From positions 45,271 through 109,270 of IMG/VR virus record IMGVR_UViG_3300035682_001186: a stretch of 64,000 nt of DNA; one strand, written 5' to 3'. Below, piece after piece: positions 1,305 through 49,078 of the stretch; positions within the stretch are counted from its first letter, which is position 1; each line of letters begins with the position of its first letter. This DNA comes from a virus. A model generated the notes under the pieces. It made no database searches, was not told where the DNA came from, and worked only from the letters and a program-made list of their open reading frames with translations. A program made the translations under genes and the position numbers.

Positions 1305-2768
1305 TTAGTCTAAATCAACAACCCAACCACCAGTTTTAGAATCAAAATTAGCCATTAACGTATTACCAGATGCAAATGGAGATGAAACTTTCATAACCGG
1401 ACGTCCATAATTATCTAATGTAATGCTACCAGCTTGAACTGTCTTCATACCTAACTGTTGACCAGTTCCACTATTGATAAAGTTAACTTCAATCTCACCA
1501 TTACCATAAGTTTCATTCATTTGTTTACTTTCATATTCAGGTTTACGAATATCTTTTGTTGGATAATCAATATCATCATTACGTGACTGATGATCATCAG
1601 GATCATAATCTTGATAACCTCTACCACGACGACCTTGTTCACCCTTACGCATTGAATGATCAGTATAACTAGAATTTCTAGCTCTAGGTGTCTTTTTATC
1701 TGTTGGTGCACCTTGTTGTATTTTTCCACCACGTGCTAAGAAATCTTCTACATCACCTTCATTAAGACCAATATATGTCATAAACTTTCTACTATTAAAA
1801 CGTGAATTATTACTTTCAAAAATCTTACAGTGACGCTTAGCTAAAATCTTACGATTATTTTCAGGTAATGTTTTGAGAATATCAGCTACTTGACGAAATT
1901 TGTTAAGTCTAACACCTTCTGCCAATGCACCTTTCTTCAAATGAGCAATAAAAGATTTTAATGTTCCTTCTGGATTACTAGTCTTATATTTCTTGTAGTT
2001 TTTTGCAAAATTAGGATGTTTTGGATCCCATTTATCATATCCTTCATCACTGTCACTGACAGATTTTTCACGAGTAGAAGAATTCCCTTCACCAGACTCT
2101 GACAATTTATCTTTACAATCAGCTACCATTTGTTTTAATTCGGCACGATCACAATCAGGATGCATTTTACAAATTTCTGCTACAGTTTTTCCATCTTTAC
2201 ACATTTTTTTAATATGTGCCATTGATGGTAATTTTCCAGTTTTAGATTTTACTGATTCAAATTGATTGCTACGTGTATTACTATCAGATTCTTCATCGTC
2301 TACACCGTTAATATTGTCCCAGTATTCTTCTGCTTCTTCTGAGCTCAGAAAAATCGCCCCGTTGCGTCGCATCGCATTTGCAACAAAATCATCTTTCTCC
2401 ATAGACATTGCTTGATTTATAAGCCAACGCTTCATAGCGCCTTCATCTAAAGTTTGTGAATTATCGTCTTCCATATTTTTATATTCAAACATGACATAAT
2501 CAGCAAAAATCTTTTCTACAGTTATACCATTTTCTCCACTAAAGAACATACCAGCTGGACCACCATCTGTAATTCCAAGTTTATCTTGAATATATGCGGC
2601 AGCGGCATCAAGTGCTTCTTCAGCTAAACTTTCTGGATCTTGATGAGTATCTTCTACATCTTCAGATACTTTCTCTTCAATACTTTCATTTAAATTAATT
2701 TTTTTACCTTGATCTACTGACTCAATTAAATCTAGCATTGATCTCATACGTGTTTGATTGTCTAACAT
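1305..2768 (-). CDS. Putative head-internal modular protein (487 aa)
   Basis: Late promoter (2791-2798) and AGGA SD; downstream of capsid gene; many LxE motifs; N-terminus duplicated in 2813..3142. Confidence 0.6.
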   Translation of the reverse strand: MLDNQTRMRSMLDLIESVDQGKKINLNESIEEKVSEDVEDTHQDPESLAEEALDAAAAYIQDKLGITDGGPAGMFFSGENGITVEKIFADYVMFEYKNMEDDNSQTLDEGAMKRWLINQAMSMEKDDFVANAMRRNGAIFLSSEEAEEYWDNINGVDDEESDSNTRSNQFESVKSKTGKLPSMAHIKKMCKDGKTVAEICKMHPDCDRAELKQMVADCKDKLSESGEGNSSTREKSVSDSDEGYDKWDPKHPNFAKNYKKYKTSNPEGTLKSFIAHLKKGALAEGVRLNKFRQVADILKTLPENNRKILAKRHCKIFESNNSRFNSRKFMTYIGLNEGDVEDFLARGGKIQQGAPTDKKTPRARNSSYTDHSMRKGEQGRRGRGYQDYDPDDHQSRNDDIDYPTKDIRKPEYESKQMNETYGNGEIEVNFINSGTGQQLGMKTVQAGSITLDNYGRPVMKVSSPFASGNTLMANFDSKTGGWVVDLD

Positions 2769-2790: not shown

Positions 2791-2798
2791 TATTTATC
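2791..2798 (-). promoter_or_regulatory. Late promoter GATAAATA
   Basis: tatttatc upstream of ATG 2768. Confidence 0.65.
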
Positions 2799-2812: not shown

Positions 2813-3142
2813 TTAAAAATCGTCATTAGGTGGTGCATCACCATTATGTTGAGCATCAACTTGATGTTCAATATACTCAACAAAAATGTCAAGTACTGTT
2901 TCAGCATTTTCGTCACGAAAATATTCATAAGCAATTTCTTCATCTTCTTCAGATACTTCTAATGCATCTTGAATGTATCTTACTGCTGCACTAAGTGCTT
3001 CTTGTGCAAGTTGACGAGGATCAGAACCACTATCTTCAGATAATTCTTCACCAATACTTTCATTTAATTTGAGTTTTTTACCTTGATCTACTGATTCAAT
3101 TAAATTTAACATTGCTCTCATACGTGTTTGATTGTCTAACAT
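2813..3142 (-). CDS. Acidic paralog of the N-terminal part of 1305..2768 (putative head-internal protein)
   Basis: MLDNQTRMRAMLNLIESVDQGKK nearly identical to neighbour; shared DP..LA.EAL.AA..YIQD.L module. Confidence 0.7.
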   Translation of the reverse strand: MLDNQTRMRAMLNLIESVDQGKKLKLNESIGEELSEDSGSDPRQLAQEALSAAVRYIQDALEVSEEDEEIAYEYFRDENAETVLDIFVEYIEHQVDAQHNGDAPPNDDF

Positions 3143-3164: not shown

Positions 3165-3172
3165 TATTTATC
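3165..3172 (-). promoter_or_regulatory. Late promoter GATAAATA
   Basis: tatttatc upstream of ATG 3142. Confidence 0.65.
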
Positions 3173-3218: not shown

Positions 3219-3265
3219 TAAAGATTGAAAAGTAATATTAGTAACAGCGAAAGATAAATAAACAT

Positions 3266-4054
3266 ATGAACCAATTTAACAATACAAAATATACACGATG
3301 GTACTATGGTATCATCCAAAAACGAGCCATTTTAGATAAAGATTCTCGTGGTGAAATACATCATATTATCCCACGTAGTATGGGTGGCAATGATTCACCT
3401 GAAAATCTTGTCAAATTAACTGGACATGATCACGCTTGGTGTCATTGGCTCTTGACTAAAATGACTACTGGATCAGCCAAAGTATCAATGATATATGCCT
3501 TTAATATGATGGGTGTCTCTGGAGAACATATGGAACGTCAGTCATCATATGCTATTGTCAGAGCGTATGAGAAGAACAGAATAGAGTGGAGTAAGAATCA
3601 TAGTGAAACTATGAGTGAACAATTTATAAATGGTCGAGAAATTTGGAACAAAGGTCGTAAAGAAGATCGTCCTGAAGTTTTAGCCAGAGTAAAAGAAGCG
3701 GCTCAGAATAGACCAAAATTAACAGATGAAAAATTAAAAGAAAAAGTAAGAAAGTCAGTTGACACAATGAAGAAAAATGGTACGGATAAACGATCTCAAG
3801 AAACAAGAGATAAGCAACGAGATTCTATGATAGGGTTAGTTCGTGGGCCGATGAATGACGTTCATAAGAATAAGATTGCCATATCTTGTCGTAAGCCTAA
3901 ATCAGAAGGACATGGTGACGCTGTTGCTGCGGCTAATCTAGGTGTTGTTAGTATTAATAGAAACGATGTCGAGAAAAAAGTCAAACAAGATACACTTCAA
4001 TCTTGGATAGAACAAGGATGGCAACTTGGTGGTAGACCACGTAAGAAAAAATAG
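3266..4054 (+). CDS. Free-standing HNH homing endonuclease
   Basis: EIHHIIPRSMGGNDSPENLVKLTGHDHAWCHWLL HNH motif; basic NUMOD3-like C-terminal region; antisense to the head operon. Confidence 0.9.
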   Translation: MNQFNNTKYTRWYYGIIQKRAILDKDSRGEIHHIIPRSMGGNDSPENLVKLTGHDHAWCHWLLTKMTTGSAKVSMIYAFNMMGVSGEHMERQSSYAIVRAYEKNRIEWSKNHSETMSEQFINGREIWNKGRKEDRPEVLARVKEAAQNRPKLTDEKLKEKVRKSVDTMKKNGTDKRSQETRDKQRDSMIGLVRGPMNDVHKNKIAISCRKPKSEGHGDAVAAANLGVVSINRNDVEKKVKQDTLQSWIEQGWQLGGRPRKKK

Positions 4055-4125: not shown

Positions 4126-5322
4126 TCACTGAAACGATATATTAGTTACCGCGATCTCACCAACGTAGTCAGCAGCATTACCAAAGCTGGATGCTGTGTT
4201 TGTCAATTCCACGTAGCCGTATCTCGTCATAAACGAAACGACTGGTTCGAATGTTGACGGATCTAGAACAACACCACTGCTCATCAACGGAATGTATGGG
4301 CAATAGAATGCAGCTGCGTCTGTTTCTGAAGAACCCTTATAACCAACTAGAACTGGTGTTCCACTTGGAGCATATGAGTCAACGAAAACGCGCATTGCGT
4401 TGTTCAATGTACCGACTAATTTTGTATTAGTAGGTGCTTCGAATGTACCTTCTGTAGTACGGGCAAAAGCTGATGTTGTAGCAGACTGAAGAACAGTCAG
4501 CATTTCTGAAGAAACAACACACCAGTTACCAGCGCCACGACGAGTACGTTGGGCGATTAGGTTAGCAACACGGTTAATTAGAACAGCTAAAGCAGCGTGT
4601 TCGTCACCAACGTATGTAGCGGTACCAGAAACGGTAGCTTGGTTATATGTAAACTCAGTAGCAGCCAATTGACGTAATGAAAGAAGAATTTCTTGGTCGA
4701 TTTCAGCAGTAATTTCTTGTGCTAAAGCGGCCATGATTTCGGCTTCAACGTCGATACCATGCATTGATTGTGCGTCTTGTGCAGCTTCGAATGTCCAACG
4801 AGCTTGTAACTTACGGCTCTTGGCTTCGACAGCTTGACGTAGAATCTGTACAGAGATTGCTTTTCCGCCGTTACCTTCAAGAGTAGCGGTTGGAGCTGCG
4901 GTATAACTGTTTGCTGTATTATCGCTAGACTTTGTACGTGAATACGCTTGAGCGATCAAGAATGGTGATAGAGCTTCGTCACCAGCCACAACCGAAGTTT
5001 GAGCTGCTGAATTGTCTGTCAAGTTTTGAGCATAGCGAACACGTAGTGTATGAATCTGTCCAACTGGACCAGTCATTGGTTGAACACCAATTAACTCGTT
5101 AGCGATAACAGTAGGCATAACACGGCGAATAACTGGAAGAATGACACGATTTAGTGTGGCAATATTACCAGCGGTTGTAGTTCCAGCATTACTTTCAGAA
5201 AGTAGTTGCTTTTTGGTGTTTTCTAAAATAACACCCATTGATGAGCGGCGGACGCCTTTGAGACCTTCAAGGAGGGCTTCTTTGGTTTCATTCCAGCGGC
5301 TCTCTAATAGTACTTTTGACAT
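4126..5322 (-). CDS. gp23: Major capsid protein (T4 gp23-like)
   Basis: LIGVQPMTGPVGQI, VEAKSRKLQARWTFEAAQD..HGIDVEAE, FYCPYIPL, SFMTRYG; AGGAG SD. Confidence 0.97.
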   Translation of the reverse strand: MSKVLLESRWNETKEALLEGLKGVRRSSMGVILENTKKQLLSESNAGTTTAGNIATLNRVILPVIRRVMPTVIANELIGVQPMTGPVGQIHTLRVRYAQNLTDNSAAQTSVVAGDEALSPFLIAQAYSRTKSSDNTANSYTAAPTATLEGNGGKAISVQILRQAVEAKSRKLQARWTFEAAQDAQSMHGIDVEAEIMAALAQEITAEIDQEILLSLRQLAATEFTYNQATVSGTATYVGDEHAALAVLINRVANLIAQRTRRGAGNWCVVSSEMLTVLQSATTSAFARTTEGTFEAPTNTKLVGTLNNAMRVFVDSYAPSGTPVLVGYKGSSETDAAAFYCPYIPLMSSGVVLDPSTFEPVVSFMTRYGYVELTNTASSFGNAADYVGEIAVTNISFQ

Positions 5323-5351: not shown

Positions 5352-6455
5352 TTAAAGCCCTGCCAGACGCTTGATATCAATCACGTTATCACGTTCTTGG
5401 GTCTCAACTTCTGTTTTCTTGGCAGATTTATCACCAGTAATTGCTACACTTTCAGAGATCATTTGTTTTTTAGCAACTGGTCTTTGTTCTGTTAATGTAT
5501 TCAATACTGCTGGTAGATACTTGTCGAATGCGCCTTTCAATTTTGGTGTTTGGACGCTTTCTAGTAAGTTCTTCATTACATGGGCTTTGTCTTCATTTAG
5601 TGTTCCGAGTAATTCACTCATAGTACGTTCACGAAGGTTACTTTCTTTAATAATGCGAACTTCACGGTTTTTACTTTCTACTAAACGTTGTGATTGTTTA
5701 GCAGTTTCGATAGATTCAGCTAATTGTTGATCTTTTTGATCTAAGATTGCTAGAAGTTTACGTGTCTCTGCTTTTTCGTTCAAGTGTGTTGAACTAAATT
5801 CAGCGGCAAATGCTTCAAACAAACGACGACCAAATGTGTTTTCATTTGCACTTTGGATGTCTTCTTTCAATTGACTGATTTCGCCTTTTAAATGTGTACT
5901 GATTGCTGAACTAACTTTTCTTGCACTTTCAGCTACAAATTTAGCTTTAAGTGAATCAAGTTGGTGTTTAGCTTCTGCAACTAATTTGACCTTGGCTTCT
6001 ACTACAGCACGTTTGTCAGTTTCAAATTCGCCAATTTCACGGGCTAGAGCATTTACTACGAATTGTTCTAGTTTACCACGGGCTTCCATTTGAACTTTAC
6101 GATCATTACGTAATTCTTTGATTTCTTCGGCTAGTTTAGTAACCATAAATTCATTGAATTTTTGTACATTTTCACGTAATTTAACTTGTGCTTTGACACG
6201 ATCTTCATTCATTGCTTGTCTTTCTGTTTGAAATTCTGTAATTTCACCAGTTAGACCTTCAGTAACCATCTTATCAAGGGCTTCTACCATTACGTTCTTG
6301 TCATGCTCATATTTCTGTGCGAATTCCTCTCGGAGTTCTGAACGAACTTGTTCGCGAGCTTCGTTTAATTTTACTTCCCATGCCTCATTAATGGCTTGGG
6401 CTGTATCTTCAGTAACGATTCCGCTTTCAAGTAATGGTTTGATGGCATCAAACAT
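5352..6455 (-). CDS. gp22: Prohead scaffold protein (gp22-like)
   Basis: Coiled-coil, many LxE sites, lies between protease and capsid genes as in T4. Confidence 0.85.
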   Translation of the reverse strand: MFDAIKPLLESGIVTEDTAQAINEAWEVKLNEAREQVRSELREEFAQKYEHDKNVMVEALDKMVTEGLTGEITEFQTERQAMNEDRVKAQVKLRENVQKFNEFMVTKLAEEIKELRNDRKVQMEARGKLEQFVVNALAREIGEFETDKRAVVEAKVKLVAEAKHQLDSLKAKFVAESARKVSSAISTHLKGEISQLKEDIQSANENTFGRRLFEAFAAEFSSTHLNEKAETRKLLAILDQKDQQLAESIETAKQSQRLVESKNREVRIIKESNLRERTMSELLGTLNEDKAHVMKNLLESVQTPKLKGAFDKYLPAVLNTLTEQRPVAKKQMISESVAITGDKSAKKTEVETQERDNVIDIKRLAGL

Positions 6456-6467
6456 TGATATCCCCTT

Positions 6468-7109
6468 TTATAATTTCAATTCCTTGATAAGACGAACTAC
6501 TTCATCTTTCAAGAATTTTTGAACTCTAGCATCCTTGTCCAAATTTGTACCTTTTAAGTTTTCTAAAACACGATGGCCATTTTTCATGTTCATCAATGAT
6601 TCATAAATTGCTTTTGGGTATGCATTTGGAGCACTGGGTTGTGCCACGATGTCCACAGTAACTATTTCAAAGTCACTGACTTTGCCTGTAGCTTCATCAA
6701 CGTTACCGCTGCCTCTACTACTAACGCCGAGTTTGACTCCATTCTCCAACATGGTGGCAGCTAACTGTCCCATGGGAGTTGGAATAATTTTTAATTTACC
6801 GAAACCATTAGCGCCATCCATCCACATTTCTGTAATGATATGACTAACTCTATCTAAATTGATTTTTAAATCATCTGGGTGATCGATTTCACCCAATACT
6901 GAGTTACCGCTTCGGATTTGTTCGTTTAAGGTTACTACGGCTTGTTCAATTTCAGGAACGGGGTAAACACGCTCATTTGCGTTCTTCACCCCACCCTGGA
7001 TAAAAATTCCTCTCATATAAAGAGATTTTTTATCACCTTCTTCCTTAACTGATTCGACTATGAGGTTCGCTCTGTCGAATGTTAAGTTCTCTCTAAGATA
7101 CAAAGCCAT
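6468..7109 (-). CDS. gp21: Prohead protease (gp21-like)
   Basis: GIFIQ..KNANERVY, LGEIDHP, INLDRVSH, LGVSSRGSG, DIVAQPSAPNAY. Confidence 0.95.
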   Translation of the reverse strand: MALYLRENLTFDRANLIVESVKEEGDKKSLYMRGIFIQGGVKNANERVYPVPEIEQAVVTLNEQIRSGNSVLGEIDHPDDLKINLDRVSHIITEMWMDGANGFGKLKIIPTPMGQLAATMLENGVKLGVSSRGSGNVDEATGKVSDFEIVTVDIVAQPSAPNAYPKAIYESLMNMKNGHRVLENLKGTNLDKDARVQKFLKDEVVRLIKELKL

Positions 7110-7123
7110 TTATACCTTATCCT

Positions 7124-7951
7124 TTAAATTCTACGCTTGGTAGTGCGACGGCTTTCTGGAACCGCACTGCGCTCATTTGTACCACTAGCCTGTGTTTTAG
7201 TTGGCTTAGGAGCACTTTCACCTTTACCTGAACCGTTGCTAGCATCGCCACCAACTTTGTTCTTGAATGATCCAGCACCTTTAACTTCTGTTTCGCCTTT
7301 AGCGCCATAATTTGTTGGCTTCTTTGGGCTAGTAGGAACTGATTCTGAACTACCACTAAAATTAACTGGCTTTGATGCCATACCTTTTTGACCACTGTTA
7401 GCATCTACTGTACTTTTCTTTGATGAACCATCGGCGCCGTCAGTGTGTGTTACTGAAACCTTTTTTAATTCAACGGCTTCCATAACGTCACTTTCTTGGT
7501 CGTCTTTATCATCCATTTGACTACCAAATTCTTCTTCGTCACCACCGAATTCTTGTTCAAATTCAGCCATTAATTGGTCAAGTTTGTCTTCAAGATCAAC
7601 AACACGATCTTCAAGTTCTTCTTCTTCGTATTCTTCACCTTCTTCATCACCGTCTAGTTCAACTTCATCGTCAAACTCATCTTCTTCACCATCAGTATCA
7701 TAGTCGCCGTCCATTTCTTCATTATCCATGAATTCATCGTCGTCTTCCATCATTCCTTCCATTCCAATTTCTTCACTACCCATTTCATCAGAAACTTCGT
7801 CCATCATACCTGTTACTTCATCTTCACTAATTAATGATTCATAAATATCACGAGATTTTTCAACTACAATCTCATGAAATAATTGTTCTGCTCTTTCATT
7901 GTCTTCATTGATAATAAGATCAATAAGTTTTTCAAATTTTGCTGTAGACAT
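7124..7951 (-). CDS. Highly acidic prohead core protein (gp67-like position)
   Basis: D/E-rich centre, basic C-terminus, between portal and protease; GCTAAATA at 7986-7993 and AGGAG SD. Confidence 0.6.
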   Translation of the reverse strand: MSTAKFEKLIDLIINEDNERAEQLFHEIVVEKSRDIYESLISEDEVTGMMDEVSDEMGSEEIGMEGMMEDDDEFMDNEEMDGDYDTDGEEDEFDDEVELDGDEEGEEYEEEELEDRVVDLEDKLDQLMAEFEQEFGGDEEEFGSQMDDKDDQESDVMEAVELKKVSVTHTDGADGSSKKSTVDANSGQKGMASKPVNFSGSSESVPTSPKKPTNYGAKGETEVKGAGSFKNKVGGDASNGSGKGESAPKPTKTQASGTNERSAVPESRRTTKRRI

Positions 7952-8304: not shown

Positions 8305-8326
8305 TATTTATCAAATTTGATAAATA
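8305..8326. promoter_or_regulatory. Back-to-back divergent late promoters forming a perfect 22-bp palindrome
   Basis: TATTTATCAAATTTGATAAATA = GATAAATA on each strand. Confidence 0.75.
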
Positions 8327-21390: not shown

Positions 21391-22332
21391 TTAACCAATA
21401 TTACGTCTTTTTTCTCTTTCGCTATCTAAACTATGTTGACGAGTGAAACTGGGATTTAACCCATTAGATTCCAAAATATCATCTCTAATGTTTTGAACAC
21501 GTTTTTCTGTATTAAGAACACGACAGAAACTATTAGTAATAGCGGCTGTATAGTAGGCAAATGGATTTTGTGATTTAGCTTCATTGAAACGTAAACCAAC
21601 GTATGTTAATTGTAAAATGGCTGCCCCACGCATTTCATCTACATAGGTATAACCACGCCAATTGAATCTTAATGAATACTTTTCACATAGTTTCAAGTAC
21701 ATGTTAGCCAATTTATTTGTAATTTGGCCATGATCTTTTGAAAAATCTCCAGTTTTCAAATCACCAATCCAATGACTTTTACCAACACAAACTAGTGAAT
21801 TTTTATCATTGATTTTGAAATGTTGAAATGGAGGGAAGTTTAAACGAACGTGAACCATATTATCTAGACCCATTTCTTTTGCTAAACCTTTGTCTTCCAA
21901 ATCTTCAAATAGAATATCTTCTGTTGGTTCAAAATCAAAGATTTCTTTTGCTGATTTTGGTTTGGAATTCTTTCTTGGTTGTTTTGGAGCCACTGGTATA
22001 TGATCCCAAGTCATGACTCTAAAGACCAAATCTGTAGTTTTAATGGTTTCTGGATCAATTTTTTCTGTTTTGATCTTGACACCATCTGGACCAACTACTT
22101 GGCTCAGTCTTGCGGCACGATTTTCTTTAGCTTTTTGAATAGTTTCTGGTTTACTGGTATATTCTAAACTACGTTCTAGATTATTATTATCTTCGTAGTC
22201 TACAATAAAGTCATATTGATGATCATCTGGTATTTCAAATTGACAATATGAATTTTTACTTGAATGTATTTCTTTTAAAATATCTTTATTGTTTAGATAG
22301 TTCTTTTTTGCTGGGGTTTTTATTGGGATCAT
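21391..22332 (-). CDS. gp55: Late-transcription sigma factor (gp55-like)
   Basis: NYLNNKD; NWRGYTYVDEM; FNEAKSQNPFAYYT...F.R...EK; start placed at ATG 22332 downstream of its promoter. Confidence 0.9.
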   Translation of the reverse strand: MIPIKTPAKKNYLNNKDILKEIHSSKNSYCQFEIPDDHQYDFIVDYEDNNNLERSLEYTSKPETIQKAKENRAARLSQVVGPDGVKIKTEKIDPETIKTTDLVFRVMTWDHIPVAPKQPRKNSKPKSAKEIFDFEPTEDILFEDLEDKGLAKEMGLDNMVHVRLNFPPFQHFKINDKNSLVCVGKSHWIGDLKTGDFSKDHGQITNKLANMYLKLCEKYSLRFNWRGYTYVDEMRGAAILQLTYVGLRFNEAKSQNPFAYYTAAITNSFCRVLNTEKRVQNIRDDILESNGLNPSFTRQHSLDSEREKRRNIG

Positions 22333-22358
22333 ATGCTCTTTAAGGTTAATATGTTGCA

Positions 22359-22387
22359 ATTATACAACGTAATGTTGTGTAAGTCAA
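22359..22387 (-). promoter_or_regulatory. Sigma70-type promoter for gp55
   Basis: TTGACT-N17-TATAAT on minus strand. Confidence 0.7.
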
Positions 22388-34957: not shown

Positions 34958-34993
34958 GTAGTGATAAATAGTAGATACAGTAATGGATAATTA

Positions 34994-35729: not shown

Positions 35730-38700
35730 ATGGCAACAAAAATTCGGTCACTTGATTTTCTTCCTGAAGTTTTTAGAACTGACAGTAATGCTCAGTTTCT
35801 TTCTGCCACATTAGATCAGTTGGTTCAACAACCTGATCTACGTAGAGTTGAGGGATTTATTGGTCAAAAATATGGTTATTCTATTAACCCAACTGATCGT
35901 TATGTAGTTGAACCAACTAAAGTTCGCTATGACTATCAATTAGATCCTAGTGTTGTATTCTTAAAAACTGAAACTCAAACTGCCAAAGATTTTATCAATT
36001 ATCCTGGTCTATTAAACGCATTACAAAATAATGGCGCAATTACTAATAATAATGATAGACTGTTTGAAAGCGAATACTATAGTTGGGATAGTTTTGCTGA
36101 TCTAGATAAGATCGTAAACTATAGTCAATACTATTGGTTACCGTATGGCCCTGATGCTGTAACAGTATCAACTAACACAATTTATCTATCAGATAATTAT
36201 AATATTACATATAGTGATACTGGATATACGATTAATAATTCAGTACAAAAAAATCCATCAATAACATTATTACGTGGTGGTACATATACATTTGAAGTAA
36301 ATCAATCGTCGCAGTTTTGGATTCAGGGTGTTCCTGGATTATCTGGATATGGTTTAAGTCCTAATACTAGTACTAGAGATGTATTAGGAGTAGAAAATAA
36401 TGGTGATTCTATTGGTACAGTTACGTTTACTGTACCAGCAAAAGATGCTCAATCAGAATATGATTTGCCAGGAAATAATACTGTTGATCTAGTAACTACA
36501 TTGACATATGCACAAATCAACGGTCAAACCGCTGCATCAATTGGTAACATTGACGGTGTAACTCAGTTAAATGGTAGAACATTAATGTTCTATAATAATG
36601 ATGAAGCCGGTAGTTCTCAGACATATTTTTATTCAATTTCTGTTAATATTAGCACTAATATTGTCACGTTGACTCAAGGTATTGGAATTCCAAACTCTCA
36701 AAAGATTACTGTTACTAGTGGTACTACTTATGTTGGTAGAACATTCTATCGTGATGGTACTGGTACAATTAAATTGATACCATATCTTTCTGCAGTCTTA
36801 GATACATTGTATTATCAAGATGGATCAAATCCACTTAATGTTGGTGTTATTAATTTAATAGAAAATAATACTACTAATAGTATTAACATTGATCAAATTT
36901 TAGGTAAGAAAAATTATACAAGTCCAAATGGTGTTACATTCATTAATGGTCTTAAAGTTATATTTGAAGGAACCACTGTTCCATCAACATATCAAAATAA
37001 TGAATATTATGTTGAAGGTGTAGGTACGGCAATCAATTTACTATTAGTCAATGACTATCGTAGTGTTGAAAGTGATGAACCAGGAACATATTATCCATGG
37101 GATTATTATAATTGGGACGATAAAGAATGGGATCAATCAAATAATGTACCATTATATCCAGATTATTTAACAATCAATAGAAATAGTCGCGATTTAAATG
37201 CATGGTCTAGAAGTAATCGTTGGTTTAATATTCAAGTTATTAATGCCACTATTGAGAAAAATGGACAATTAACGTCAATTATCGGTAATACCAGTACTCG
37301 TGCACAACGACCTATTATTGAATTTTATGGTAATCTTGGTCTTTATAATAGTGGAACAAAATTCTTAGATTTTGTTTCATTATTTGACAATACAACAATT
37401 GACGCTTTTACTGAAATAGTTGGCCAACCAGCCTATACTATTGATGGTCAACCATTACTTTCTGGTCAAACAATTATTTTTAATCATGATGATAATAGTT
37501 TAGTTCGTAAAAACGTATATGAAGTTTCTTTTGTACCAACTGGACCGGGAAATTCAAATGTCATTGCACTTAATATTGTAGAAACTGCACAAGATAAAAA
37601 CCAAGTTACTATCATATCTGGTACAGTACGGAAATCAACTAGTTGGAGATTTAATTCTGTAGATTCTACATGGATTCAATGTCAACAAAAATCAACAGTT
37701 AATCAAGCTCCATTATATGACATATATGATATAAATGGAATATCACTTAGTGATCAATTATATTATAATGGTTCAACATTTGCAGGAACCAAACTATTTT
37801 CATACACTGATGGTACGGGCAAAGTTGATCCTATATTAGGATTCCCAATTAGCTATTCAAGTACAGTTAGTATTGGTGATATTAATTTTACAGTTAATCT
37901 AAATAAAGATTTATTTTATTATCAACAAAGTGATAGTGTTGTTGAAGAAAAAATTAATATTGGTTATGTATATGACTATCTAACCCCTGATGTACCAACT
38001 AAAAAAACTGGATGGGTAACAGCATTTACTCAAAGTTTTCAGTCACAAGTATTTGAATTTACAGTCAATCAAGAAACTCAATCTAGATTTACATGTGATG
38101 TAGTAGTGAAAACTGATACGGTAATTGATCCACATCATGTGTATGTCAATGATGTATCGTTAGATGAGGATACTGCTTATTCACATGTCATTGATCTAAA
38201 TAACAATACTACTACTATTATATTAAATACTCCGGCAATACGTGGAAATAAAGTTACAGTAACATTATTGAGTGATCAAGTTAGTCGTACTGGTTATTAT
38301 GAAATTCCTAGTAATTTACAAAACAATCCATTTAACACCGACATTACTAATGTTGATGTTGGTGATATCAAGAACCAGTATGACACCATATTTGAAAATA
38401 CAGTAGGAGTAACAGGACAAGTATTTGGACCTAATAATGTTTATAATCTAGGAAACTTAAACAGATTTGGCACGGCAATTATTCAGAATAGTGCCAGTTT
38501 AGTATTACCCGGTGTATTTTTACGTAAACCTGGATTTAATTTATTTGAAGCATTACAATTCAACAGTGATCAATATACAAATTTCAAATCATTGTTGATT
38601 AATTTAACTGATCAAAACGATTTCACAGTCTATACAACTCCAGCTACAATGTTGGATACAATTCTTTATCAAATTGCCAGTACAAGAAACAGTACAAATT

Positions 38701-41700
38701 CATTCTTTTGGAGTGATATGTTGTATACTGGAAGTCCATATAGAACCAACAGTTATCCATTTAATGTTTCATTATCTACTATTACATTACCAACATATAG
38801 AACTTATGATTTTACATCAGCGAACTATTATGGTTTAGCTGTTTATATTACTACTACAGTTAATGGTCAACTAGTTACTAATCAATTGATACGTGGTGTG
38901 GATTATGTTGTTAATAATATTAGTCCAAATTTAACAGTAACATATAACATTGTTGCTGGTGATACAATTACAGTTAATGAATACAATCAAACATATGGTA
39001 CATATTGTCCAAACACACCAACTAAACTAGGATTATATCCAAGTTTTATTCCTGAAGTTATCTTAGATAATACTTATACTATCCCAACTTATTTTATTTT
39101 AGGTCATGATGGTAGTTATACAAAACTTTATGGTAATTATATTAACGGTCAGTTAACTGATTTCCGTGATAAAGTTTTATTAGAATTTGAAACTAGAATT
39201 TACAATAACTTAAAAGTTTCTGGTGATATACCATTATCAGCAGATGAAGTTATTCCAGGACAATTTAGAACCACTGATTATTCACAAAGTGAAATATTAG
39301 ATATATATAGAACAAATTTCTTAAAATGGGTTGGTTTAAATCGTATTGATTATAAAACACAACAATACAATAGATCAAATCAATTTTCATATAATTATAA
39401 TAAGAGTACTAACATACTTAACAATGAATTGTTAAAACAAGGTTATTGGAGAGGTGTATATAATTGGTTCTATGATACTAGTGATCCAGCAAATGCGCCA
39501 TGGGAAATGTTAGGATTAACCAGTGAACCAACTTGGTGGACTGATAGATACGGTGCTGCTCCATATACTAGTGATAATACATATATGTGGCAAGAAATTA
39601 GTGAAGGTTATGTATGGAATAATGGTGATAGTTATATTAATCCATTTAAAATCAGACCAGAATTATTAAGTGTATTGCCAGTAAATCCGGCTGGAACATT
39701 ACAATCACCATTACCAATTGTAGTTGGTAATTATGATTCATTTACATTTGAACGTAATTGGATTGTAGGAGATCAAGGGCCGGCAGAAACTGCATATCTA
39801 CGCAGTAGTTCATATCCATTTGATTTAATGCGTATATTAGCATTAACTAAACCAGCAAAATTCTTTAACTTAAATGTTGATCGTGATTTGTACAAATATA
39901 ATAAAGAATTCAATCAATATCTATACAATGATCGTTATCATTTGAATCCTAGAGAGATTCAAGTTTATGGATATGACGAATCCACTTCTCAAGGCGTGTC
40001 CAAGGCATCGTATATTAATTGGGTAGTAGACTATATCAATCAACGTGGTGTTAATGGTACAACTGAAGTTACTACAACCTTGAAAAATCTAGATGTCAGA
40101 CTAACATATAATATGGCTGGATTTAGTAGTAAACAATACTTAAAATTTTTGATTGAAAAATCAACACCGAATACTCAAAATACAACATTGTTAATTCCAG
40201 ACAATAGTTATAGTGTGTTGTTATACGATAATGTACCAGAAGATAAAATTGTATATAGTTCAGTTATTGTACAACGTACTAGTGCGGGTTATACAGTTTG
40301 GGGAAATAGTCAAAGCGATCCATTCTTTACGGTATCAGTACCTAAAGCTGGATTTACAAAAACATTAAGTGTGAATAATCTGTCAGTGACAGTTAGTAGT
40401 GAATTTTATACAGACAAAACTATTACAATACCATATGGTAATTTATATTATACTACTCAGGGAGTTAGTGAATTTATTAAATCATATGGACAGTATCTAG
40501 TAGATCAAGGTATGATTTTTGGTTATGTAATTGATACTATAACCTATGACTGGGATCAAATGATTCGTGAGTTTTTGCATTGGGCAGAACAAAGTTGGGA
40601 AGTTGGTAGTACTATCAATTTAAACCCATCTGCTAAAATTGCCACTGTAAATAGACCAGGATTAGTGGTTCAACCGTTGACAATTCAACAAGATAATTTT
40701 ATTTTAAATCAAAATCTAATACCATTACAAAGTCAAAATGCTAGTATTGTAAGAGAAAATGAAAGTTTTACAGTTGGTGTATTAACTGACGGAGATAGTG
40801 TAGCCTTTACAAATCTTAATTTGGCTAGTATGGAACACGCAGTAGTGTTTGATAATTCTACCATATTCAATGATACCATTTATGATTTAGTTACTGGATT
40901 ACGTCAACAAAGATTGGTATTACAGGGTTATAAATCAGGTGAATGGAATGGATATGTTAATGCCAGTGGATTTATTATCAATGAAGATAATATTCAAGAA
41001 TGGGTACCTAACATCAAATATGCTAGTGGGAAAATTGTAACTTATAAAAATCAATATTGGGTTGCTAATCAATTGATTCAACCACAAGCAGAATTCTTTA
41101 ATGAACAATGGACTCAAACAACATACGATAAAATTAAAACTGGATTATTACCTAATCCAAGTACCAATGCATATGAAAGTTTATATTACTATGATAGTAC
41201 TAGAGCAAACTTTGAACTAGATGCCGATCTATTATCATTTAGTTTGATAGGTTATAGACCAAGACAATATTTGGCTGATGCCGAATTAAGTGATATTACT
41301 CAAATTGGTGTATATAAAAACATCATTAAAGAAAAAGGAACTAACTTAATTGCTAATGCTTTTAAGAGTGCAAACTTAACTCAGGGTAAAATTGATTACA
41401 ATGTAAAAGAAAATTGGGCAATTAAAACCAGTGTATTTGGTAGCGTATCTAACAGTAATTTTGTTGAATGTTTATTACTTCAGAATGAACTAACTGGTAA
41501 TCCAACACTATTAGGATTCTCAGATAATGGATCTGTAAGCGGAGTTCAACAAACAGTATTGATGAATGATATCATCAACTGGAATATGCCACCAACATCT
41601 GCAAATTTCTTACCGCCATTTAATGACGTTTATTCATATGAACGTGGTTTACCAAGCGCAGGATATGTCAATCTAAATGATGTAAAATTTAAAGCGTTTG

Positions 41701-44700
41701 AACTTACTGATTTAAATAATACATTTGATACTACCAATATTGACACGTTGAATCGTGGTGATAATATTTGGGTTGCCAAATATCGTGGAAGTTGGAATGT
41801 ATTTACTCCACAAACAGTAAACACACAAGTAATAAGTATCATTAATAATTTAAATAATACAATTACTGTTAACTTTGGTAAAAATCCAAATTTGGCAAAA
41901 AATGATCCAATTGCAATTAGTAATTTTGATTCTAGAATCAATGGTTATTATGAAGTTCTATCAGTGAATTCATTAACTAGTGTAATTATTTCAAAAGCAT
42001 TGGATAATGCTGTATTACAATTACAAGGTAATGGTATAGCCTTTAAACTAGTATCTAGAAGATTTACTCAAGCTAGCGATCAAGTATATAGTACGGTATT
42101 CAATAGTGAATATTATACCAAAAAATCTTGGATTGATAGAGATACAGACAATCAGTGGGCTGTATGGTCATGTGGTCCAGATTATACTGAGTTTAATATT
42201 GACTCTACAGAATTGAATTTACAAGATTTGGGTAGTAGTGTTGCATACAGTACAGAAATAGGTTATGTTGGGGCCAGTGCAATTGATGGAACAATTTATC
42301 GTTATTATACTGACACTACTGGTCAAACTATAACTCAAACTATATCTCAACCTTCTTCAACATTTGGCACAGCCATGGTTGCAGTAGATGAATACTTGTA
42401 TGTCAGCGATGCACTTAATAATAAAGTTTATGTGTATAAGGTAAATTATCCAAGTAATTTTATCACATTACAAACAATTATTAATCAGATTACCACTGGA
42501 CAAATAACAGTTAGTGCTGATAATCAATGGGTATATATTTCCGATGTGGAAACAAAAACTATTGCAGTTTGGGCATTAATGACTAGTGGTGATTATGAAT
42601 ATGTTAGTACTATTACTGGTCCAAGTACTGCTACGGGATTTGGTACTTCAATCACTACTAGTATAGATGGAGTTAAATTAATTGTAGGTGCACCATTAGA
42701 AAGTTTAGTAACAAGTGGATCAACTCAATTAACTGGTTCTGGCGCAGCTTATGTATATACTAGAAGTGTACAAAGATTCATGTCAAATGGTACAAGTACT
42801 ACATACACAGTTAATGGAACTATTCCTAATGCAATTGCTGATGTCTTAGTTGATGATGTATTAACTAATGATGTATCTGTTTATGCTAATGGTTCAGTGG
42901 TATTTACTATTGCTCCAATTTATGGTAGTATTATTGAAGTAAGTTATGGAGAAATGAATCTTGTTACTCAATTATTAAGTAGCAATCCGATAGTTGGCGG
43001 TAACTTTGGTACTAGTGTATCAACCAACAAATTTGGAGCTCAATTAGTAATTGGATGTCCAAGTGAATTACAAACTGTTAATAATATATCAAACGTTCAA
43101 GGTGCAGTATATCGTTTCACCAATGGTGGTCAACAATATGGTTCAGTAGTTGGATCAGTTAGTGGCACCGCATCTGGATACATTTTCATTGATGGATTTA
43201 AAGTAACTTATTCTGGCACTGCAGATCAAATAGCTCAATCAATTAATACTCAAACTCCAACCAATATTATAGCTGTTGCTAGTGGTAATATACTTCAAAT
43301 TGGAGTTATAAACAATACAGTAGAAACTATTAATAATATTATTGATATTACTGGACCAGAAGAATACATTACTAATTTGGGATTAACATTGTATGTTAAT
43401 ACACAAGTAATAGTTAATCCAAATTTACCAACAATTGGAAGTTTTGGAAAAGTAGTATCTATGGGAACTCGTGACAGTATGGTAGTCAGTGATCCAACTG
43501 CTACAGTGTATGCTGAAACAACATTTGATTATAATATAGTTGACCCAACCGTATGTAATCCTATAGTATCAATTGACAATTTTACTATTTTTGATCACGG
43601 TGCTACGGCGTTTATTGACACATTTGCAAACACTGGAGTAGTATATGAATTTGACTATCTACCAGCTGCGGATGAAAGCATTATTAATCCTGGAAAATAT
43701 GTATTTGGTCAATTTATTCAAAGTATAGATAGAACTGGAATAGCAAATACTCCAAAATTTGGAACCAGTGTAGTTGATAATGATGGTGTAATAGTTGTAG
43801 GTGCTCCAAATTGGTATAGTACTGGTACTGGAAGAATTTTTGGATATGTTAACTATTGTCAAACTAGTAGTTGGTACATAGATAAGAAACCATTACCAAT
43901 GGTCTCAGTTGAACGTTTAAATAATATATCTATCTATGATACTATTAGTAATAATACATTAGATTATCTAGATTATATTGATCCAGTACAAGGAAAATTA
44001 TTAGGTGCAGTTGAAACAAATTTAGATTATATAAGTTCAACTAACCCAGCCACATATTCTGATGGAATAGTGTGGAGTTTTGAACATGTTGGTACTACAT
44101 GGCTTGATACAACAAGTATTAGAATGTTGAATTATAATCAACCAAGTGTGTCATATAACTCTAAAAATTGGGGTAAAGCATTTCCTGGAAGTACAGCCGA
44201 TATATATACTTGGATAGGAAGTTCATTCCCACCAATTCAATATAGTGGTAGTGGATTCGTAGTTGATTTTAATAATTATACTACAGTTAAAAGTTTAGAT
44301 CGCTCAACCAATGCTATTGTTGTTGACTATTTTTTCTGGGTTAAAAATTATAATTTTATTCCACCGGGAAAAACACTAAGTCCATTGACGTTAAGTCAAT
44401 ATATACTTAACCCACTTAATAGCGGAATAAGTTTCTTAGGTGCAATTACTACTAACGTTGTTGGATTGTTTAATTGTGAAAGTAGTATTAATGCGGCCAG
44501 TAGTGCACTACATATTGGTTACAGTATTGGTAATACACCAGATCAAAAACATCAAAGTTGGACATTAATTCAAGAAAATAATGCAACTGATTTCTTAACT
44601 GGATTCCCAACAGAAAGTCAACCAAATCCAATTGGATTATATTCAAAATATTTAGATAGTTTTGCTGGACAAAATCGTCTTGGAATATATATACCAAATT

Positions 44701-47700
44701 CAAAATTACCAATTTTGACTCGTTATGGTATTGATTATTCACAAAGTATGTTTATAAATCGTCCATTGGCACTACAAAATTATATTACATATGCTAATGA
44801 AGTTTTAATAAAATTACCTATTGCTGAAACTCGCAGTTTATATTTCTTAAATCAAGTCGGAGTTGGATATGATACAAGAGATTACTGGTCATATACTGAT
44901 TGGTGGGCAACTGGATATAGTAGTAGTACAAAGATTGTACTTGAAGTAAACACTGTTACTGATCTACAAACACTACAACCAAATCAAATACTTCCAGGAA
45001 CAGAACAAATTGTTATTGGACTATCAGATGGCATCATTGTAAAAGTAAAAGCCAATGCACAAGGTAATAGTGAAACTTGGACATGGTATGCGGCTACTGG
45101 ATGGGACAGAATAGGTTTACAAAACGGTACAATTCAAATTTCAGAAACATTATATAATACCCCAGTTCATTGGGATATTGGTGGTTGGGATATTGGATTA
45201 TATGATGATACAGTATATGAAGAAACTTATTGGATCATTCGTTGGTTAAACGAAGAAGCTTATATAGAAGATTTGTTGATTGAACGTAATAATAGTTTAA
45301 TATTAATGTTTAATTATATTCAAAGCGAATCACTAGAACAACAAAATTATCTTACATGGCTCAACAAAACCAGTTTGATTGATGTAACTCATACTGTTCG
45401 TAAATTATTACCATACAAGAAATTTCAAAGAGATAATCAGGAATTCTTGAGTGGATATTTGAATGAAATTAAACCATTTCACGTTAAAATTAAAGACTTC
45501 TTATATGTATATCCGGGACAAGATACGTTCTTGGGCGATGTAACTGACTTTGATTTACCGGCAAAATTTGTACCAAGTGTGGGACAATTTGAAACTCCAC
45601 AATTAGTATATACTACTCCAGAATTATATACACCAGAATATTTATCTACTAGTACAGTATGGCAATCGCCTGAATATACTCAATGGATTGAAAATTATGG
45701 TTTAAGTATTACAAATGAAAAAGGTCTTTATAATTTAACATCATTATCGGCATATATTACTTCAACTGCAACAATTATACCAGTTAAAAATACATATGGT
45801 ATGCCTGATGCTGGATTTATATATATTGGCGCTGAGAAAATTTCTTACAGTAATGTTGATAAGTTACAAAACGTTTTAACAGATATACAACGAGGAATTG
45901 AATCAACTCCAACTGATCATTATCCAAATGATATAGTTAGTGCCATATTACCAGCGGTAATTGTATTAGATAAAGCACGTGGATATGTAAATCCACCAGT
46001 GATTACTGTTATTAATAACAGTGCTTATCCTGAACCAAGAACTGTTGCTCAGCTAGTTCCAAATATGGTTAACGAATCATTGATATCAGTTCAGGTATTT
46101 AATTCTGGATCTGGTTACGCTACACAACCAATGATTGAAATTGAAAGTAGTTCAATATCTTCTACGTTTGTCAGTACTGATGTTAATATTGTATTCAATA
46201 CTATTACAGTAGTAGATCATAGTTTTGAAACTGGTGATTCTATTAAGTATTCAATTGGTTTAAATACAGTATCTCCACTTGGATTAATTAATAATAGTTA
46301 CTATTATGTAAGAGTTATTGACGTTAATACTATTGCACTTTATTATTCAGTTAAGGGTGCTTATAACATTGACAAAACTAGTTTGATGGATACTGAACGT
46401 GTTCAATTAGAAACACAAGGTTCTGGAACTGAAAATACAGTGGCAGTTACGGCCAGAGTAGCATTACTAACTTCAAGTCAACCTGTTAGAGAATTAATGA
46501 CTACTATTAAATTTGATAGAACAAGTTATGGTAGTTTAATTACTGAATGGATTAGTGGTACTATATATGCAGGAGAATTTACTGATATTGGAAAACTATC
46601 AAGTTCAACATTATTAGCGGCGTCAAGTAGTCCATGGGAATATTTGTCATGGAATGGAACAAATTGGGATGCTGATTTATTAGCATCAGCACAGGGTGCA
46701 TCATTACCTATAGTACAAGTTAGAAATTCATATTCATATAATGGACCAGTAATTGTAGAATTAAATTATGGATATACACCTGTAACTCCAGGACAATTAA
46801 CTGGTCAAAAAATTACTGCCTATAAAGTTAGTTCAGGATGGGATATTAATGATTGGGATGCAGAAGACTGGGATCTTACTTATCTTGAATGGATTGATCC
46901 AATTGATTACTATGTAAAAGTTATTTCTACAACATTAGTAGAAATATACTATGATCCATTATTTAATTTGCCAGTAAAACTTGTTGACTTTAATTACACT
47001 GTTAATGACGTATTATTCTTAAAAGAACCATTTACATTTAGTAAAAGTTTAGTGACATATGCGGGAAAATTATATCAATGTATAGTTAGTAATAATGATA
47101 CAATATTTGACTATAGTAAGTGGGAACAAATTTATAGTAATAATTCAATATTGAATGCTGCTGATAGAATTGCTGCTTTTTACGAACCAACTGCTAATAT
47201 GACGGGACGTGATCTTAGACAGTTAATGAGTGGTGTAGTTTATCCTAACGCTACTACACTTGGAACGCCGTTTAATTATAATGATGGTGAATTATATGAT
47301 TCAGTTGGTTATGGATATTCGTCATATGATGTTAATTCAACAGCCGAAATTGATACAAATCTTCAATCGCCAGATTTTAACTATAATCAATTGACTAACC
47401 CAACTACATATGATGTACAGGGTGGATCATTTAATGACGGTTATGGCCCAGAAGAATTGATTCCTGGTTTAATCACTGATTTCTTAGAATTCAATGTTAC
47501 TACTGATCCAACAACATTAAGTCCGGGTGAATATTTGAACTTTAGAATTCAAGTTGGTAAATTTGGTACAGATTCTGCTTATAACGTTAATCCATATAGT
47601 AATATATACACAACTACAGTTTATAATACTAATCCATATACTCAAACATATTTGACTCAAGATTTTGTCAGTACTAATAGTATAAGTGATGTATTACATG

Positions 47701-49038: not shown

Positions 49039-49078
49039 GATAAATAAACATATCAGAACTCAAAGGATTAATTAAATC

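Follow-up and report, generated by a model that had tools for sequence, protein, structure and literature searches.

A candidate head-cargo polyprotein with modules delimited by prohead-protease-type sites in an uncultured jumbo T4-like phage

We have analysed a 64-kb window, the whole of a stretch of viral DNA (positions 45,271 to 109,270 of IMG/VR record IMGVR_UViG_3300035682_001186), and conclude that a 487-residue protein encoded close to its capsid gene is probably a polyprotein of head cargo, similar in kind to the internal proteins of T4, which would be targeted by a leader, cut by a gp21-type protease and retained as small peptides that are co-injected with the DNA. The chain is predicted to comprise a helical leader of 28 residues and seven autonomous modules of 53-82 residues. 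As read from the sequence, each junction consists of a hydrophobic residue, any residue and glutamate, followed by Ser, Gly or Thr, and so matches the known specificity of T4 gp21. Among relatives the modules are swapped, deleted and reordered precisely at these junctions. The T4 enzyme cleaves after L/I-x-E, and the T4 internal proteins carry targeting propeptides of 10-19 residues (PMC9026906; PMC3012670).

Genomic setting and head genes

A sequence-only reading of this DNA had placed a late gene of 487 codons near the capsid gene, and the open frame (P0001) is confirmed, on the minus strand with its ATG at 2768 (Table 1). The source is a 109-kb record with a CheckV completeness of 29%, which implies a whole genome of roughly 350 kb. 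Capsid proteins of the Rak2/PA5oct/GAP32/CBB group of jumbo myoviruses share 63-67% identity with the one encoded here, and T4 gp23 shares 35% over an aligned core of 234 residues. The order of genes on the minus strand is portal, a 74-residue gene, a 275-residue acidic protein, the gp21-type protease, the 367-residue scaffold-like protein, the major capsid protein, an HNH homing endonuclease (opposite strand), a 109-residue gene, the 487-residue gene, a 113-residue gene (opposite strand) and a baseplate wedge gene.

The octamer GATAAATA that precedes the ATG is found at an equal distance before the 109-residue paralogue, the portal, the 74-residue core gene and the baseplate wedge gene, and a gp55-like late sigma factor is encoded at 21391-22359. 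The 64-kb window contains 11 copies of the octamer where 8.9 are expected, no excess over chance, and only the positions before start codons are informative. From this context the 487-residue frame reads as a late-type gene with a box of its own, located beside a T4-type head module.

With T4 gp21 the protease shares 39% identity together with the GE..HP and GVSSRG stretches. The junction motif had been described as abundant in the scaffold and at the N-terminus of the capsid protein of the same phage, and it is found in both (Table 1). The mature N-terminus of gp23 aligns with the capsid protein from two residues after Ser44, and LSE/S43 (here and below a slash marks the bond and the number refers to the glutamate) immediately precedes this gp23-like mature N-terminus. 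The N-termini of the scaffold-like protein and of the protease also carry the motif, as PLLE/S and LIVE/S, respectively.

Table 1. Position of the 487-residue frame, its predicted parts and the associated features in the window
Feature	Position	Strand	Remarks
487-residue frame (P0001)	1305..2768	-	ATG at 2768
Module G, aa 420-487, C-terminal	1308..1511	-	Small beta barrel; pLDDT 92-95
Module F, aa 338-419	1512..1757	-	Disordered, R/D-rich; ends MNE/T419; pLDDT below 50
Module E, aa 285-337	1758..1916	-	Basic helical bundle; ends LNE/G337; pLDDT 90-92
Module D, aa 225-284	1917..2096	-	Ends LAE/G284
Module C, aa 172-224	2097..2255	-	Three helices, four Cys, basic; ends LSE/S224; pLDDT 97
Module B, aa 110-171	2256..2441	-	Helical; ends QFE/S171 (LDE/S in relatives)
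Acidic linker and module A, aa 29-109	2442..2684	-	Helical; ends LDE/G109; AF2 unit 41-103, pLDDT 87-97
Leader, aa 1-28, candidate capsid-targeting propeptide	2685..2768	-	Sites LIE/S16, LNE/S28
Late-promoter-like box GATAAATA	2791..2798	-	23-30 nt upstream of the ATG of the 487-residue frame
109-residue paralogue	2813..3142	-	Same promoter box, RBS and leader; diverged module A only
Capsid propeptide, aa 1-43	5194..5322	-	LLE/S7, LLE/G19, LSE/S43
Scaffold-like 367-residue protein	5352..6455	-	14 sites
gp21-type prohead protease (Peptidase_S77)	6468..7109	-	phrog_207 at 2.8e-60; PF03420 at 98 bits

Junction motif and modular architecture

All eight of the hydrophobic-x-Glu-like sites listed in the sequence-only reading are present (Table 1). 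A further one, IFE/S318, is located within a confidently predicted helix of module E and is IFEN in most relatives. The pattern [LIVMF]xE[SGAT], which was chosen after inspection of the sequence, occurs eight times in the protein compared with 2.3 +/- 1.5 in 5000 shuffled versions (2.3-2.5 in shuffles), an excess corresponding to a z of 3.7 and a P of about 0.001. The density of 1.64 per 100 residues is fourfold that in the other 41 frames of the window (0.41), amongst which only the scaffold-like protein is richer (z 6.5). A profile compiled around every glutamate of the family with no pattern set beforehand is enriched in V/L/Y/M at P3 and in S/G (also C and Y) at P1'; control proteins display no comparable profile around Glu. 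The unbiased profile gives the same motif as the pattern. In T4, used as a positive control, the pattern recovers the sites after residue 10 of ipII and ipIII, 19 of ipI, 65 of gp23 and 10 of gp24, in agreement with published propeptide lengths (PMC9026906), and there are many matches in gp22, gp67 and gp68.

The enrichment extends to 41 of 41 family proteins on 40 viral contigs, with z values of 1.4-6.4 (2.2 or more for 40 of them), although these values are not independent because the proteins have modules in common. The mean z for 97 control ORFs of at least 300 residues from the same contigs is -0.07, and the controls with values above 3 are two scaffold homologues and a 480-residue ORF that overlaps the family gene of L041 on the same strand. 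A 303-kb relative (G006; 86% complete, capsid protein 89% identical) allowed all 293 of its ORFs to be ranked. The scaffold homologue comes first (z 9.0), followed by a 931-residue multi-module ORF (5.0) and the protease (3.8). In its N-terminal part this 931-residue, LxE-rich product has homologues in PA5oct gp278 and CBB gp276, two proteins annotated as structural components of the virion, gp278 with an ESI-MS/MS note in its record (PMC7318152). Elsewhere in G006 a 560-residue ORF begins MRFTEFISE and has five junctions of the form GVAE/G or GVAE/S, and a 670-residue ORF begins MRTNEFLAE.

Predicted domain borders coincide with the sites, as the sequence-only reading would have it. The AlphaFold2 (AF2) model, built on a 107-sequence alignment with correct placement of 102 of 106 rows, contains confident units at residues 41-103, 181-225, about 250-285, 290-345 and 423-487 and a unit of medium confidence at 109-159. 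These are joined by low-confidence linkers (27-39, 104-107, 159-176, 228-243 and 351-421), and the pTM of 0.29 indicates modules that have no fixed mutual arrangement. Glu28, Glu109, Glu171, Glu224, Glu337 and Glu419 are positioned at unit borders and Glu16 is near the end of the leader helix. The exception is LAE/G284, which lies inside a predicted continuous helix where the pLDDT merely dips, to 59; we have counted this against the assignment of the protein as head cargo. Independent structural matches span residues 42-103, 180-234, 283-349 and 418-483, and the coverage of the query by homologues steps at 109/110, about 171, 224-228, 284, 337/338 and 416-419.

Not every junction is canonical. 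QFE/S in the 487-residue protein and E/D or E/L in some relatives depart from the motif, and the two non-canonical junctions were also counted against a cargo role.

The predicted fragments have masses of 5.9-9.5 kDa and, as the sequence-only reading had described, are of very different composition. Modules A and B are acidic, with net charges of -18 and -8, C, D and E are basic (+4, +2 and +8), F is rich in Arg and Asp and G is a beta module. Searches with the whole protein found no family above threshold in Pfam, PHROGs or a PDB sequence search, and the sole match from tblastn against GenBank phages was a 46-residue stretch in mycobacteriophages. Foldseek against the PDB gave no match with E below 1e-3, VIA-align wide gave only generic structural matches, all with Z below 8, and ESM Atlas gave no usable match. 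Individually, the modules all stay below the curated Pfam thresholds, and the yield from ten family members in Pfam was almost nil. Since none of the modules matches a known enzyme or toxin family in Pfam, Foldseek or VIA searches, the earlier suggestion of several small effectors stays an inference.

Module C is the most informative of the seven. About 175 stretches among the retrieved proteins match it, and its consensus, ..LPSMAHIKKMCKDGKSVAEICKMHPDCD.., is approximately 80-90% identical in proteins that range from 49 to more than 1200 residues, in which it occupies varying positions. Amongst 25 distinct copies the protein identity is about 90%, with 94% identity at codon positions 1 and 2 and 73% at the third. 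The C-terminus is nearly always [LMVI]-x-E and then G, S or A. Weak matches to DUF433 (HTH, PF04255) were obtained for 23 of the 25 members, the best with an E of 1e-5; the copy in the window scores 17.4 bits with a gathering cut-off of 23.6. There is also a weak match to the C-terminal part of DarP/YjgA and a generic winged-helix structural match (Z 4.8). Module C is predicted most likely to be a small nucleic-acid binder of the helix-turn-helix type.

The remaining modules offer less. The structural matches to the module E region obtained with VIA are those that cover residues 283-349. The start of module F aligns with the RNAP-binding domain of SutA (SutA-RBD, PF20661) at 19.9 bits, with a cut-off of 29.3 and over 14 residues only (339-352), and a PDB sequence search with this module gave no match. 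Module G resembles Tudor, chromo and SH3-like folds, generic matches with Z about 5.

Leader and cassette exchange among relatives

The idea of an N-terminal capsid-targeting sequence, raised in the sequence-only reading, has gained support from two sources: the leader present in the adjacent 109-residue gene and the T4-like leaders of relatives. The leader is a predicted helix at residues 2-19 (AF2, pLDDT 82-88). Between the 487-residue protein and its paralogue 27 of 30 leader residues are identical, compared with 57% overall; the leader is kept among paralogues while the cargo diverges. The form MLDNQTRMRSMLDLIE/S..LNE/ is common to 17 close homologues, that is, to all of the close ones. 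Distant members of the family have a 15-residue leader, M[DN]FKSLLSQLDQLNE/A, and the leaders of relatives in general are 9-21 residues long and end in LxE/A or LxE/G. Two of them, MKSFSQFLQE/A and MDFKSLLSQLDQLNE/A, are T4-like. The first begins P0227, is near to the T4 leader MKTYQEFIAE/A and is followed by two tandem copies of module E. In P0158 a leader is attached to module G alone.

The sequence-only reading had proposed a search for stand-alone and shuffled modules in related phages, and both kinds are found. Proteins of 50-86 residues consist of module A, C, D or G by itself (for module D, P0181 with 53 residues). The homologues of module A, which have 50-65 residues, are without a leader; such proteins imply that modules also work outside capsids and we have counted them against the head-cargo assignment. 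Excision exactly at the junction bonds is seen for module C in P0005 and P0011 (..NQFE/SGEGNSS..), for module F in P0004 and P0006 and for module D in P0008. Alternative first modules, one of them a glycine zipper, replace the acidic linker of module A in relatives, and close homologues possess three different C-terminal modules. In L042 modules B and D and the glycine zipper are reordered, each beginning directly after E/, and module B is flanked by E/G junctions in both L042 and P0219.

Of the ends of local alignments (HSPs) among these homologues, 20% coincide exactly with a site bond, compared with 3% at random. Global alignments, which force unrelated modules onto one another, show no such signal. 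A recombination signal at the DNA level was considered and rejected, since the codons at the junctions differ; selection therefore acts on the peptide. The capsid protein of L003 shows 98% identity whereas its cargo protein has 400 residues rather than 487 and is 59% identical over residues 1-337, from which it follows that the locus turns over much faster than its surroundings. Lengths in the family range from 346 to 1526 residues.

The gene is not a constant companion of the capsid gene. In most phages with capsid proteins 77-91% identical other genes follow the capsid gene, a search of five large contigs (capsid identity 82-89%) found no module C, and in PA5oct and CBB, which are cultured relatives, the small ORFs at the corresponding position are unrelated. 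The absence from most close capsid relatives marks the gene as accessory, a further point that we have set against a role as head cargo. Five long viral contigs that do carry a family gene have neither a protease nor a capsid gene on them, but as fragments that are 15-29% complete they say little about co-occurrence.

Possible roles and comparison with known systems

Other explanations for a targeted and site-rich protein were considered. It is unlikely, though the best placed of these, that the gene encodes an accessory component of the prohead core or scaffold, targeted and cut in the same manner, with fragments that are expelled or that fill and charge-balance the head and have no host role. 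The density of sites is like that of the scaffold, the pieces of T4 gp22, gp67 and gp68 mostly exit the head, modules A and B are acidic like the tail of T4 gp67, and no module bears an enzymatic signature. Rapid exchange of cassettes at 98% capsid identity would however be unexpected for an assembly component, as would a gene that is missing from most close relatives. The conservation of module C at about 90% across very different phages points rather to a specific conserved partner, and the folded modules are of the size of IPI* and IPII*, which T4 retains.

It seems improbable that the chain remains uncleaved as a multi-domain, tail- or baseplate-linked protein of the virion, for instance a tail-lumen or tape-measure-like protein in which x-E-G/S is a linker habit of the family. 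Such a role would accord with the baseplate wedge gene that follows in the window, with sizes of 850-950 residues, which are common in the group of the L010, L026 and L035 type, and with the neighbourhood in those three contigs, where the homologue is flanked by tail tube or head-completion genes on one side and by a gp5-like lysozyme or baseplate genes on the other. T4 genes 4 and 2, in the equivalent neighbourhood, nevertheless encode head proteins. The range of lengths in the family, with 400 and 487 residues in near-identical phages, is incompatible with a ruler, and AF2 predicts beads and disordered linkers, not long helices. In addition, the leaders are similar to the T4 targeting sequence and finish with a site of the protease type, and outside this family the motif is restricted to scaffold, capsid propeptide and protease. 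The tape-measure or tail-lumen identity, for which a long helical chain of constant length is expected, was rejected on account of the beads and the varying length.

As a separate matter, the tail/baseplate neighbourhood of the module C protein in more distant phages, where it follows sheath, tube and gp4-like head-completion genes and precedes a gp5-like lysozyme, was entered amongst the observations that count against head cargo.

We find it very hard to credit a late multi-domain protein of the cytoplasm that is never packaged and whose motif excess is a by-product of helix ends and linkers, since, although leaderless stand-alone modules exist, the same motif closes modules of helical, beta and disordered type alike, there is no enrichment in the 97 control ORFs or in 290 of the 293 ORFs of G006, and the leader is more conserved than the cargo.

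For a head-cargo polyprotein, the following sequence of events can be proposed. The leader would dock the precursor onto the scaffolding core while the prohead is being built, and the gp21-type protease would strip the leader and then cut all of the junctions. A set of 6-9 kDa peptides would stay in the head, with the basic modules C, D and E probably lying on the DNA and A and B as acidic members, and would exit with the DNA at infection. In this way one leader could load a mix of small proteins at a fixed ratio, and the junction motif could act as a universal joint at which one cassette can replace another and the product is still processed. Alternatively, fragments as small as these (6-9 kDa) might escape from the prohead like scaffold fragments. 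More tentatively, and with rather less than even confidence, we suggest that an uncultured clade of jumbo T4-like phages may use the prohead-protease site as such a joint between freely exchangeable mini-protein cassettes that come after a capsid-targeting leader, giving a combinatorial cocktail of small DNA-binding, membrane-active (glycine-zipper) and host-directed peptides that are loaded from one gene and co-injected, with evolution by exchange of cassettes at the joints. Such phages, though their DNA is double-stranded, would follow a polyprotein strategy and would offer a natural counterpart, with several cargoes, of the engineered T4 packaging system.

If the head-cargo proposal is correct, jumbo phages would pack many small proteins from one gene at a fixed ratio and the protease site would serve as a splice point in evolution as well. 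A large metagenomic pool of dark modules of 50-80 residues may then be injected cargo, and the grammar of leader and junction would provide a sequence rule by which head cargo could be recognised in uncultured phages. Being small and autonomous, the modules lend themselves to expression and to screens for anti-defence or host-takeover activity.

Our literature search did not find a description of a leader combined with freely shuffled mini-modules delimited by protease sites, and several known systems share part of this arrangement. Polyvalent proteins carry 2-15 unrelated domains per chain with domain shuffling, and co-delivery with DNA and processing by peptidases have been proposed for them (Iyer et al., 2017; PMC5512222). 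They resemble the 487-residue protein in the unrelated domains on one chain and the shuffled architectures. They differ in that the proteins are large, have recognisable enzymatic domains (ART, MuF, methylase, nuclease) and are believed to be processed by a zincin-like or fused assemblin-like peptidase, whereas here there are modules of 50-80 residues without a known domain and junctions that match a separate prohead protease. Pfam searches with this protein and ten family members found no hallmark polyvalent enzymatic or anti-restriction domain, no MPTase and no assemblin-like peptidase.

The inner-body and ejection proteins of phiKZ, 201phi2-1 and SPN3US are likewise head proteins of jumbo phages, are cut after Glu, often at several sites, and in those phages are packaged with the DNA. 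Their motif is, however, S/A-x-E, their multiple sites serve mainly to clear propeptides, and their lineage, for which no cassette architecture is described, is unrelated to the Rak2/PA5oct-like group. The T4 prohead core proteins gp22, gp67 and gp68 likewise have dense gp21 sites and are cut into many small pieces, as is predicted here, but these are conserved assembly proteins, whereas the 487-residue gene is accessory, mosaic and without homology to them.

The closest likeness is to the T4 internal proteins, textbook examples of phage proteins that are co-injected with DNA and disarm host defences, and that are seen as single small proteins. No sequence similarity to IPI, IPII or IPIII was found in the Pfam, PHROG and GenBank phage searches, which counts for little because the T4 internal proteins are mutually unrelated. 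The leader of IPI, IPII and IPIII (and of Alt) ends in L/I-x-E before a small residue and has 10-19 residues, compared with 16 or 28 here. In both cases there is a late gene at a hypervariable locus, a gp21-type protease in the same genome, and tandem paralogues with a common leader and diverged cargo, as for ipII and ipIII. The products are about 6-10 kDa and some are basic, features which here are predicted from the sequence. The difference lies in the cargo. A T4 internal protein has a single cargo domain and is processed by removal of the leader only, whereas the protein described here has seven unrelated modules and a site at each junction.

Modules of the probable cargo ORF and of its relatives

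Module E is the only part of the 487-aa modular ORF with a phage match in GenBank (37% over 46 aa), namely hypothetical gp53 of the mycobacteriophages Phrappuccino and Settecandela, and it is also matched weakly by phrog_2922. As judged from these matches, the range of the module extends past the T4-like phages. Module F begins with GDVEDFLARGGKIQ, which gives a sub-threshold match to the Pfam SutA RNAP-binding domain (E 4.6e-4; 19.9 bits, with a cut-off of 29.3). This segment could be an RNA-polymerase-binding peptide, or else the match could be due to chance.

In many relatives a glycine-zipper module, with the sequence IGGALTGGAIGSMVGG.., lies directly behind the leader. Its carriers are the homologous proteins P0003, P0004, P0006, P0011, P0012 and P0015-17 and the family protein of viral contig L042 (aa 596-638), the module of which is matched by Pfam Gly-zipper_Omp (2.5e-7). 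The cassettes potentially include a membrane-active peptide. Distant members of the family (contigs L010, L026, L005 and others) carry behind the leader, at about aa 16-70, a conserved TEKTKTG..HTAEPGGYGRK motif and also an AT-hook-like KGRGRPKK; a calcium-loop-like motif, DMDKDGD/N, is often found C-terminal to the basic three-helix module C.

Three more multi-module ORFs are present in the 303-kb relative G006. Two of these have leaders, MRFTEFISE and MRTNEFLAE, that are very close to the T4 capsid targeting sequence, and in the 560-aa ORF each of the five junctions reads GVAE followed by G or S. The 931-aa ORF has modules in common with L042 and P0019, and shares its N-terminal part with PA5oct gp278.

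Neighbouring genes

The extremely acidic 275-aa protein, which probably belongs to the prohead core and is of the gp67/68 type, has syntenic counterparts in PA5oct gp332 and CBB gp254. Both of these are annotated as structural proteins, and gp332 also carries an ESI-MS/MS note. Further giant ORFs, of 1261 and 1144 aa, lie near that of 4170 aa.

In contigs L026 and L032 a homologue of the HNH homing endonuclease (7151-7909; 50% identity) is located upstream of the module-C gene at a distance of about 1.1 kb, in a setting among tail genes that is quite unlike that of the window. Homing endonucleases may aid the mobility or diversification of the cassette locus.

Coordinates of features in the window and, where stated, in G006
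Feature	Position	Strand	Setting
Start of module F, GDVEDFLARGGKIQ	1713-1757 (aa 338-352)		487-aa ORF
Module E	1758-1916		487-aa ORF
HNH homing endonuclease	3266-4054	+	between capsid gene and cargo genes
275-aa acidic protein	7124-7951	-	between portal and protease
gp55-like sigma factor	21391-22359		
Single 4170-aa ORF	35730-48242	+	
GATAAATA	918-925, 2791-2798, 3165-3172, 8305-8312, 10879-10886	-	
GATAAATA	3253-3260, 8319-8326, 34963-34970, 49039-49046	+	
560-aa ORF	72841-74523	+	G006
670-aa ORF	97355-99367	-	G006
931-aa ORF	36199-38994	-	G006

A candidate late promoter

Nine of the 11 occurrences of the octamer GATAAATA in the window are upstream of start codons, mostly 13-33 nt away; it is these positions that are telling, 8.9 occurrences being expected by chance. 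The octamer is likely to be the late promoter of this phage, recognised by the gp55-like sigma factor. The late promoter of T4 is TATAAATA.
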